Source of the DNA: Candidatus Aenigmatarchaeota archaeon
GTDB taxonomy: Archaea; Aenigmatarchaeota; Aenigmatarchaeia; Aenigmatarchaeales; JAHLMR01
DNA length: 29,485 nt
Direction: 5' to 3'
Assembly (NCBI GenBank): GCA_018920255.1
Contig: JAHLMR010000007.1
Location: 1 to 29,485 of the forward strand
Part shown: in pieces, positions 7,949-20,259 of the stretch
How the letters are laid out: each line of letters begins with the position of its first letter
Position numbering within the stretch: the stretch's first letter is position 1
Notes under the pieces: generated by a model
Seen by the model: the letters and a program-made list of their open reading frames with translations, nothing else
What the model was told of the DNA's origin: nothing
Databases searched by the model: none
Translations under genes and position numbers: made by a program

Positions 7949-8032
7949 TAAAATCCCTTAGTTAATATTTTAATTTTTTATTTTAAAAAGATTAAATATA
8001 TTAAATAATATGCCCCAGTAGCTCAGTTGGTA

Positions 8033-8045
8033 CAAATGCAAAAAA
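8033..8045 (+). other. ~12-13 nt extra segment in the D-loop of tRNA-Thr, candidate micro-intron
   Basis: The D-loop is AGTTGGTACAAATGCAAAAAA (21 nt). It shares GGTACA..TGCA..AAAGAGC with the D-loop insertion of tRNA(CAU). Confidence 0.4.
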
Positions 8046-8083
8046 GAGCGGCTGCCTCGTAAGCAGCAGGTCGGGAGTTCAAA

Positions 8084-8107
8084 GCAGCTTTTAAAAAATG
8101 AGTAAAA
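8084..8107 (+). other. ~24 nt T-loop insertion of tRNA-Thr (putative intron, ends approximate)
   Basis: TTCAAA|GCAGCTTTTAAAAAATGAGTAAAA|A-CTCCC. Same entry point (after TTCAAA, starts with G) as the long elements. Confidence 0.55.
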
Positions 8108-8138
8108 ACTCCCCTGGGGCTCCAAAGAGGTGCTTAAA

Positions 8139-8447
8139 ATGCCGGAATACATATGTTTTGTGAAAAAGAATAATGTAAAAAAAGCTGAAGAAAAATTAAG
8201 AAAGGATTTTGATATTGCAGCAAAGCAATCAATAACAATTCGTGATAACATATCATTAGGAATAAAAATTCAAGAAGAAGGAAGTTTCTTTTATATTCGT
8301 GGTACTGAAGAGGGTATATTAAGATGTAAAGAACTTATTAAAGAATTTGTGTTTGAGTTAAAAAATGAAATTTTAAATGAAGCAAAAAACAAAATATTAG
8401 AGGAAGAAGAAAAGGCAACAACAGGATTTGGAGGAATATTTGGGTAG
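8139..8447 (+). CDS. Small hypothetical protein with ribosomal-stalk-like acidic C-terminal tail
   Basis: GAGGTG SD then ATG at 8139. Sequence runs MPEYICFV...EEEEKATTGFGGIFG*. See findings. Confidence 0.6.
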   Translation: MPEYICFVKKNNVKKAEEKLRKDFDIAAKQSITIRDNISLGIKIQEEGSFFYIRGTEEGILRCKELIKEFVFELKNEILNEAKNKILEEEEKATTGFGGIFG

Positions 8448-8457
8448 AGGTGAAATT

Positions 8458-8715
8458 ATGACAGCAAAAGTTGCATTATTTACTATAGGCGCAACAAGAC
8501 AAACAATAGAAAATACAATTGATAAATTAGTTAAAGTAAATGGATATGTAGGAAAATATAATAATATACAAAGATTATTAGAAGATGCTAGATTAGGAAA
8601 AATGAGTCATGTAGTAATTAGCCACCCAGATGCATTAGATAATGTAACAGTAAAACAATTAAAAGAATTAAATATTATTATAATCACATTTAAAGAATTA
8701 GATAGAATTTTATAA
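8458..8715 (+). CDS. Hypothetical protein (85 aa)
   Basis: GAGGTGA SD 5 nt upstream of ATG 8458; MTAKVALFTIGATRQ... No secure motif. Confidence 0.5.
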   Translation: MTAKVALFTIGATRQTIENTIDKLVKVNGYVGKYNNIQRLLEDARLGKMSHVVISHPDALDNVTVKQLKELNIIIITFKELDRIL

Positions 8716-8716
8716 A

Positions 8717-8874
8717 GCGCCATTGGTCTAGTGGTAGGATAGGAGCTTCCCAAGCTCTTGGCCTGGGTTCAAAGAACCTTCTTTCTTAAAGAAAGAAGGT
8801 TCATCAAGAAAGACAAATTTTCTTGATGCAACTTCTTTTTTAAAGAAGTTGCGGGATTCCCAGATGGCGCACCA
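8717..8874 (+). tRNA. tRNA-Gly(CCC) with 84-nt T-loop insertion, CCA encoded
   Basis: GCGCCAT-TG-GTCT-AGTGGTA-GGAT-A-GGAGC-TTCCCAA-GCTCT-TGGC-CTGGG-TTCAAA[84 nt]T-CCCAG-ATGGCGC-A-CCA. Confidence 0.85.
8774..8857 (+). other. T-loop intervening sequence of tRNA-Gly(CCC), 84 nt, three hairpin modules
   Basis: Modules: GAACCTTCTTTC-TTAAA-GAAAGAAGGTTC; ATCAAGAAA-GACAAA-TTTTCTTGAT; GCAACTTCTTT-TTT-AAAGAAGTTGC. It ends with GGG-AT before the 3' exon. Confidence 0.7.
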
Positions 8875-17814: not shown

Positions 17815-17998
17815 TGGTGCGCCAGCTGGGAATCCCGCAACTTCTTCGAAGCTTCTTTTTCAAAAAAAGAAGCTTCAGCAAGAAAAACTTTTTAAGTTTT
17901 CTTGATGAAACTTCTTTTTCTAAAAGAAGTTTCGAAGCTTCTTCGAACCCAGGTCAGCAGCTTGGAAGGCTGCGGTCCTACCACTAGACTACTGGCGC
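17815..17998 (-). tRNA. tRNA-Gly(UCC) with 110-nt T-loop insertion, CCA encoded
   Basis: GCGCCAG-TA-GTCT-AGTGGTA-GGAC-C-GCAGC-CTTCCAA-GCTGC-TGAC-CTGGG-TTCGAA[110 nt]T-CCCAG-CTGGCGC-A-CCA. Confidence 0.85.
17832..17941 (-). other. T-loop intervening sequence of tRNA-Gly(UCC), 110 nt
   Basis: T-loop UUCG can pair with the intron-terminal CGGG, followed by a 3-nt bulge AUU, giving a half-BHB at the 3' site. The element shares a 53-nt identical block with the Met/Lys element. Confidence 0.7.
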
Positions 17999-20072: not shown

Positions 20073-20259
20073 TGGTGGGCCCAACGGGATTCTCTGCAAC
20101 TTCTTCGAAGCTTCTTTTTCAAAAAAAGAAGCTTCAGCAAGAAAAACTGTCTTTCTTGATGCAACTTCTTTTTTAAAGAAGTTGCAAAGAAGGTTCTTCT
20201 TTGAACCCGCGACCTTCCGCTTAAGAGGCGGTTGCTCTACCAGACTGAGCTATGGACCC
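20073..20259 (-). tRNA. tRNA-Lys(CUU) with 110-nt T-loop insertion, CCA encoded
   Basis: GGGTCCA-TA-GCTC-AGTCTGGTA-GAGC-A-ACCGC-CTCTTAA-GCGGA-AGGTC-GCGGG-TTCAAA[110 nt]T-CCCGT-TGGGCCC-A-CCA. One A27/A43 mismatch and two G:U pairs. Confidence 0.85.
20090..20199 (-). other. T-loop intervening sequence of tRNA-Lys, 110 nt, identical to the tRNA(CAU) copy
   Basis: 20092-20216 equals 651-775 base for base in my manual alignment. Confidence 0.75.

Follow-up and report, generated by a model that had tools for sequence, protein, structure and literature searches.

Short D-loop inserts in an archaeal tRNA-Thr and tRNA-Met are probably minimal protein-spliced introns

The D-loops of tRNA-Thr(CGU) and tRNA-Met(CAU) in the 29,485-nt stretch of DNA analysed here (the window) carry inserts of 13 and 15 nt that very probably (we put the chance near 85%) are minimal protein-spliced introns located between tRNA positions 20 and 21. 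This reading is built on the geometry of the splice sites, on excision products that match the D-loops of orthologues, on covariation among related genes and on the presence of the enzyme genes in the same genome. No new mechanism is implied: D-loop introns are of a kind already known, and what we add is a splice-site model, with covariation, for the D-loop class.

The window corresponds to contig 23 of an archaeal assembly of 552 kb (25 contigs, ~25% G+C) and contains archaeal-type genes for an S-layer protein, a fused primase, TruD and deoxyhypusine synthase. None of its five tRNAs was detected by ARAGORN or by Rfam at the gathering score, and with a loose E-value Rfam returned from the window just fragments and spurious miRNA and PyrR matches on T-loop hairpins. 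Since ARAGORN recovered 15 tRNA genes from the whole genome and misread several of them, we wrote a cloverleaf scanner that tolerates inserts in the D-, anticodon- and T-loops and applied it to the window and the genome. The scanner found five tRNAs in the window and ~35 in the genome, at least one insert being present in ~30 of the ~35 genes. Most tRNA genes of the genome encode the 3′ CCA; five (Ala-UGC, initiator Met, Val-CAC, Ser-CGA and Arg-GCG) have CUA after the acceptor stem instead. Ile is decoded by UAU, the only two CAU tRNAs found being an initiator and an elongator, and the identical copies of tRNA-Ile(UAU) at two contig ends (contig 13, 3-105; contig 25, 109-7) are probably a single locus divided by the assembler.

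tRNA-Thr(CGU) (8012-8124, + strand) encodes its CCA and parses as a cloverleaf with two intervening sequences, one in the D-loop and one in the T-loop. Its acceptor strand occupies 8012-8018, and the D-stem (GCTC at 8021-8024 with GAGC at 8046-8049) closes a D-loop of 21 nt (8025-8045). This loop reads, in order, GUUG, the 5′ bulge GU↓A (G8030 U8031 ↓ A8032, the arrow marking the predicted cut), a 6-nt loop, CAAA and the 3′ bulge AA↓A (A8043 A8044 ↓ A8045). The central helix, placed by register fit and covariation, pairs an exon half, GUUG (8026-8029, tRNA positions 15-18), with an intron half, CAAA (8039-8042), at three of four positions, the outermost G15-A being mismatched; UUG/CAA is also contained in the MFE fold of the D-arm, and the inner helix of the intron is a single base pair (C...G). 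The predicted 13-nt intron, fitted by register and cut at 20/21, spans 8032-8044 on the + strand, and excising it leaves the 8-nt D-loop AGUUGGUA, identical to the D-loop of the uninterrupted Thr(CGU) gene of a relative (L009).

The T-loop of the same gene measures 31 nt and includes a 24-nt insert (8084-8107, + strand, at 59/60 if sited as in other tRNAs). With two of four pairs, this insert (region 8078-8108) is the sole poor fit to the 59/60 register among the 16 T-loop inserts of the genome; an alternative UUCA/UGAG helix (UGAG at 8100-8103) has four of four pairs but entails a 6-nt 3′ bulge or a 10-nt T-loop. The first-pass annotation had called it the shortest T-loop insert, which holds within the window but not in the genome, where those of Gly(GCC) and Cys(GCA) are 15 nt. 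Around the gene, a 93-aa ORF that overlaps it (7970-8251, − strand) is probably spurious, and two small ORFs (105 and 95 aa) without a Pfam match lie in 8130-8715, between tRNA-Thr and tRNA-Gly.

On the opposite strand, the elongator-type tRNA-Met(CAU) (630-869, − strand) parses as a cloverleaf with three intervening sequences, in the D-loop, at 37/38 and in the T-loop. The D-stem (860-857 with 832-829) closes a 24-nt D-loop (856-833) that reads CCUG, GU↓A (G850 U849 ↓ A848), an 8-nt loop, CAGG and AA↓A (A835 A834 ↓ A833), followed by the D-stem. The exon half of the central helix, CCUG (851-854, positions 16-18), and its intron half, CAGG (836-839, in the standard register), form four of four Watson-Crick pairs that are present in the MFE and centroid folds alike, and the inner helix of the intron is 2 bp (CA...UG). 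Register fit places a 15-nt intron, cut at 20/21, at 834-848 of the − strand. Its excision (848-834) leaves the 9-nt D-loop AGCCUGGUA, which is the D-loop of the uninterrupted tRNA-Met in three related genomes (G003, G004 and G006). The other two interruptions are a canonical 36-nt intron at 37/38 (781-816, − strand; CUCA/UGAG with four of four pairs, bulges UA↓A and AU↓A) and a hairpin-rich 112-nt intron at 59/60 (647-758, − strand; UUCA/AGAA with three of four pairs, bulges AA↓G and AU↓C), the latter in a T-loop of 119 nt.

The identity of this gene as elongator tRNA-Met is supported by the TG-GCTC-AGCCTGGTA-GAGC D-arm shared by Met orthologues of the order; the anticodon-stem strand before CTCATAA is CCAGA in these orthologues and TCAGA here. 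Across the order (42 genomes), a search for tRNA(CAU) genes sharing the D-stem of tRNA-Met gave 13 further genes, three of which (in G003, G004 and G006) have the exact TG-GCTC-AGCCTGGTA-GAGC arm. Not one of the 13 is interrupted, and the D-loop intron of tRNA-Met is therefore unique to this genome within the order.

Direct reading and the cloverleaf parse thus agree with the first-pass annotation on D-loops of 21 nt in tRNA-Thr and 24 nt in tRNA(CAU). The other three tRNAs of the window have, as also stated there, normal D-loops: 7 nt in tRNA-Gly(CCC) (8717-8874, + strand; 84-nt T-loop intron), 7 nt in tRNA-Gly(UCC) (17815-17998, − strand; 110-nt T-loop intron) and 9 nt in tRNA-Lys(CUU) (20073-20259, − strand; 110-nt T-loop intron). 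The letters GGTACA...TGCA...AAAGAGC, reported as common to both long D-loops, are indeed present in both genes, and most of them are structural: exon G18, G19 and U20, the first A of the intron, the closing C...G, the CA(A/G)(A/G) segment and the AA↓A bulge. The proposal that both inserts enter at the same place also stands, the splice register putting the cut after U20 in each.

How would such inserts be recognized? Bulge-helix-bulge (BHB) sites are cut after the second base of each 3-nt bulge. In the known BHB register, bases −6 to −3 of the 5′ exon pair with bases −6 to −3 of the intron, and for canonical introns the 4-bp central helix takes in positions 32-35, the first two bases of the anticodon among them (PMC4090602). 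As a positive control, the 17 anticodon-loop introns that could be parsed in this genome were read in the same way: in 14 of them positions 32-35 form at least three of the four pairs with bases −6 to −3 of the intron, and nearly all of the introns end in AA↓A. Except in Thr(CGU), the T-loop inserts of the genome obey the same register at 59/60 (UUCA with NGRR, then AA↓U). Both D-loop inserts likewise show a central helix flanked by two 3-nt bulges, with four of four pairs in Met and three of four in Thr. A relaxed BHB in the register of the genome's canonical introns can therefore be drawn for either gene, contrary to the earlier statement that no convincing one could be.

The strict hBHBh′ motif, in which outer helices stack on both bulges, is absent from both sites. 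On the 5′ strand of the two D-arms one or two unpaired bases (A14, G15) separate the D-stem from the central helix; because of this 1-2-nt offset, and because the inner helix has just 1-2 bp, the Thr and Met sites are of the relaxed hBH/BHL type. The folding energies of the D-arms are insignificant against shuffled sequences (z = −0.43 for Thr, −1.14 for Met), although the predicted structure is the MFE structure in each case. We attribute this to helices too short for thermodynamic support and so do not count folding as evidence.

Are these two inserts a peculiarity of the window? The genome-wide survey of D-loop lengths that the first-pass annotation had suggested indicates that they are not, as 9 of the ~35 tRNA genes of the 552-kb assembly have D-loops of 21-38 nt. 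In Thr-CGU, Thr-GGU, Met-CAU, Asn-GUU, Val-UAC, Val-CAC and Glu-CUC, 11-15 extra nt (11 in Glu) lie on the 3′ side of the loop, and in Pro-CGG and Pro-GGG 14 and 29 extra nt, respectively, lie on its 5′ side; the uninterrupted D-loops of Thr-UGU and Pro-UGG provide models of the mature loops. The seven further inserts fit the register with four of four pairs, except for Thr-GGU with three of four, in whose helix (GCUG/CAGA) the U-A of the Thr-CGU paralogue is replaced by C-G. The two Pro introns (Pro(GGG), contig 25, 26134-26235; Pro(CGG), contig 1, 19510-19424) are sited at ~16/17, with a CUAG/CUAG helix and bulges CU↓A or CC↓A and AA↓U. In Pro(GGG), the 29-nt intron contains a perfect 9-bp inner hairpin, making a near-complete motif, and the predicted product AGCUUGGUA is the D-loop of the Pro-UGG gene of the same genome.

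The Pro(GGG) intron starts with ACAAAU, as the Thr introns do. Among the nine D-loop introns, six start with ACA and five of those with ACAAA. Outside the structurally forced letters, the Thr and Met introns have in common the loop ends CA...UG only, and it is possible that the Met intron was copied from a Thr gene.

In all 371 genomes of the class we looked for a pattern blind to pairing, which fixed only U8, a purine at position 9, the D-stem, GTA and AAAGAGC. This pattern gave 14 matches in 12 of the 371 genomes (loci including L157-L168) and none in a reversed control. Twelve of the matches are tRNA-Thr genes that span all three isoacceptors in 10 genomes, this one included; the others are one tRNA-Asn and the tRNA-Met described here. 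The GCUC D-stem of the Thr matches also occurs in Lys, Met, Phe, Asn and Arg tRNAs, yet Thr predominates. Four of four pairs form in the predicted register in 12 of the 14 matches, through 12 different helix sequences, the exceptions being the two Thr genes of the present genome. When the interior of each intron was shuffled, the combined p was ~7e-8, a value that overstates independence because the 14 matches are related genes.

In an alignment of 11 Thr D-arms from 9 genomes, the helix is 95.5% paired and three of its four pairs have changed on both sides; its covariation score is reached in 0 of 500 shuffles. Sliding the partner columns lowers pairing to 24-54%, and to 24-27% for a slide of one column. 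The splice-site helix of these 11 Thr genes has thus been maintained by compensatory changes. Intron loop length and sequence vary freely among the genomes, and the helix and bulges alone are conserved; two genomes (G289 and G292) have an extra 4-bp inner helix directly after the 5′ bulge. D-arm inserts also occur at other sites in genomes of the order (loci L002, L003, L011, L025 and L029): 11 nt at ~22/23 in a Thr(CGU) gene (G027, UGGU/GCCA), 42 nt in a Gly(UCC) gene (G012, GUCU/GGAC), 15 nt in a Gly(CCC) gene (G006), and 31 nt each in a Lys(CUU) gene (G011) and a Trp gene (G023), for which no placement was found in the standard register.

The genome contains two adjacent, overlapping EndA genes coding for 170 and 183 aa (contig 11, 57154-58214; L032:1276-2336). 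The longer product (183 aa) retains the catalytic Tyr and His; it also contains a basic insert, VKPIKRGPKAP, that aligns with a Lys-rich one in the EndA of Nanoarchaeum equitans. Its 170-aa partner is without the catalytic His and, judged by its sequence, would serve as the structural subunit. In both proteins NIRA aligns with the S(V/T)RK of M. jannaschii and N. equitans, which puts Ala at the position of the canonical catalytic Lys. An RtcB ligase is also encoded (E = 5e-178). Relaxed non-canonical sites have been linked to two-subunit EndA and to DPANN EndA with a Lys-rich insert (PMC5829648; PMC3239211), and (αβ)2 and ε2 enzymes are reported to cut relaxed hBH/BHL sites (PMC3239211). The gene content therefore supplies an endonuclease suited to relaxed motifs and an RNA ligase, with the Lys-to-Ala change as a caveat. 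The EndA pair lies ~150 bp from tRNA-Phe and tRNA-Asn.

We propose the following route for the two introns, in which cleavage, ligation and the exact cut sites are predicted from sequence. In the precursor, the four D-loop exon bases ending at G18 would pair with bases −6 to −3 of the intron, counted from the 3′ splice site, and the resulting 4-bp duplex would form the central helix of a relaxed BHB. The 3′ splice site would then lie in a 3-nt bulge (A A ↓ A21) between the central helix and the D-stem, and the 5′ splice site (G19 U20 ↓ A) in the bulge or loop that the helix closes, the inner helix there having only 0-2 bp, as in the hBH or bulge-helix-loop type. The two-subunit EndA of contig 11 would cleave each bulge behind its second base, and ligation of the exons would fall to RtcB, giving a normal D-loop of 8 nt (Thr) or 9 nt (Met) in which G18 and G19 are free. 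The predicted joins are ...AGUUGGU to AGAGC... in Thr and ...AGCCUGGU to AGAGC... in Met.

The first-pass annotation had offered two readings, short relaxed introns or expanded D-loops; the former is backed by the register and by covariation in related genomes, and the latter appears unlikely. If the extra bases were kept, mature tRNAs would carry an expanded D-arm, composed of the D-stem, an internal loop, a second helix of 3-4 bp and a terminal loop, and still translate. Going by the MFE folds, the extra helix might conceivably act as a stable extension of the arm, and a census of Asgard tRNAs holds that some D-arm inserts without a canonical motif may not be introns (bioRxiv 10.64898/2026.10.13.758758). 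Against this, the inserts follow the splice register and the AA↓N 3′ bulge of the genome's own anticodon-loop introns, and their exact removal recreates the D-loops of orthologues. Moreover, the folding of a tRNA requires G18 to pair with the T-loop, and the extra helix sequesters this base; a stem assignment that absorbs the extra bases, regarded beforehand as evidence against introns, exists only insofar as this splice-site helix is counted as that stem. Free variation of the loop together with a kept 4-bp helix and bulges is, finally, the signature of a processing signal and not of a functional arm. On these grounds we find retention quite unlikely. That the inserts, or at least the Thr insert with its mismatched 3-bp helix, stay unremoved and that translation proceeds with 21-24-nt D-loops and a second D-arm helix strikes us as very unlikely, and we know of no earlier description of a tRNA with this architecture.

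Could the introns be real but cut in a different register? Permissive enumeration gives several alternatives with three of four pairs per gene, some of which leave 9- or 10-nt D-loops in Thr; UUGG/CAAA with bulges UA↓C and AA↓A, for example, would take out 12 nt and leave the 9-nt loop AGUUGGUAA. A BHB drawn on one gene is therefore weak evidence, and the case rests instead on the anticodon-loop introns used as a control, on the match of the products to orthologues and on covariation. Among class-wide genes, the GU↓A register is the one that pairs fully in 12 of 14 and collapses when slid by one column, and the 8-nt product it predicts for Thr is a real orthologue D-loop, so that a shifted register seems unlikely. 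A cut at 21/22 is a special case, since an A on both sides of the junction makes its product identical to that of a 20/21 cut; the BHB register places the cut after U20. It is still harder to regard the two genes as decaying pseudogenes with neutral junk in their loops, even though each has two or three interruptions and is missed by ARAGORN and Rfam. All four stems are intact in both genes, ~30 of the ~35 tRNA genes of the genome are interrupted likewise, and an intron at the corresponding site, with compensatory changes, persists in Thr orthologues from other families. In addition, across the genome only the Thr gene presents a CGU anticodon arm in a tRNA context, and only the Met gene a non-initiator CAU arm. 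As each gene is thus alone in providing its anticodon, and the genome is 94.6% complete, both must give working tRNAs, and decay is hardly credible.

Short protein-spliced introns as proposed here have close counterparts. The D-loop intron of Aeropyrum pernix pre-tRNA-Thr2(UGU) is removed in vivo, and also by the purified (αβ)2 EndA alone (Hirata et al. 2011, PMC3241643). By its description, this is likewise a protein-spliced D-loop intron of a tRNA-Thr; however, it is of the BHB type, occupies a non-standard position and comes from a crenarchaeon, with the Crenarchaea-specific loop in its EndA, whereas the present introns are 13-15 nt, almost lack an inner helix and belong to a DPANN-type host. 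In Methanopyrus kandleri, pre-tRNA-Glu(UUC) has a relaxed (HBh′) intron at 20b/21 alongside a canonical one (Kaneta et al. 2018, PMC5829648). That site lies immediately ahead of position 21, where the D-loop ends on its 3′ side, and the 11-nt insert of Glu(CUC) lies at the equivalent spot in our genome. The M. kandleri enzyme, in contrast, cut its Glu intron poorly in vitro, and the intron is a single case there as opposed to nine D-loop introns here.

Candidatus Micrarchaeum (ARMAN-2) offers a parallel in size and motif: its pre-tRNA-Cys(GCA) has a 13-nt hBH (BHL) intron at 59/60 that is cut in vitro (Fujishima et al. 2011, PMC3239211). Host (DPANN), length and a relaxed motif with one splice site in a loop are all shared, but the ARMAN-2 intron is in the T-loop and its enzyme is a three-unit ε2 EndA, as against the D-loop and a two-gene α/β enzyme here. 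The D-arm intervening sequences of Asgard archaea are also short and are left by standard annotators in an "enlarged D-loop" (bioRxiv 10.64898/2026.10.13.758758). They come from another phylum, have a median length of ~22 nt and show canonical motifs in about one third of cases, whereas the 20/21 class described here has clear helix covariation.

What do these introns mean for the tRNA genes of such archaea? Micro-introns of this type can be looked for by a simple rule: a four-base exon segment with G18 as its last base is paired to bases −6 to −3 of the intron, and an AA↓N bulge comes next. Recent Asgard tRNA work left partly open whether short D-arm inserts are spliced through relaxed motifs, and the class-wide 20/21 Thr intron, with its clear covariation, is comparative evidence that they are. 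The Thr and Met inserts are ordinary in themselves but cleanly illustrate why standard tRNA finders overlook such genes. With all five tRNAs of the window invisible to these finders, DPANN genomes would seem poor in tRNAs although they are not.
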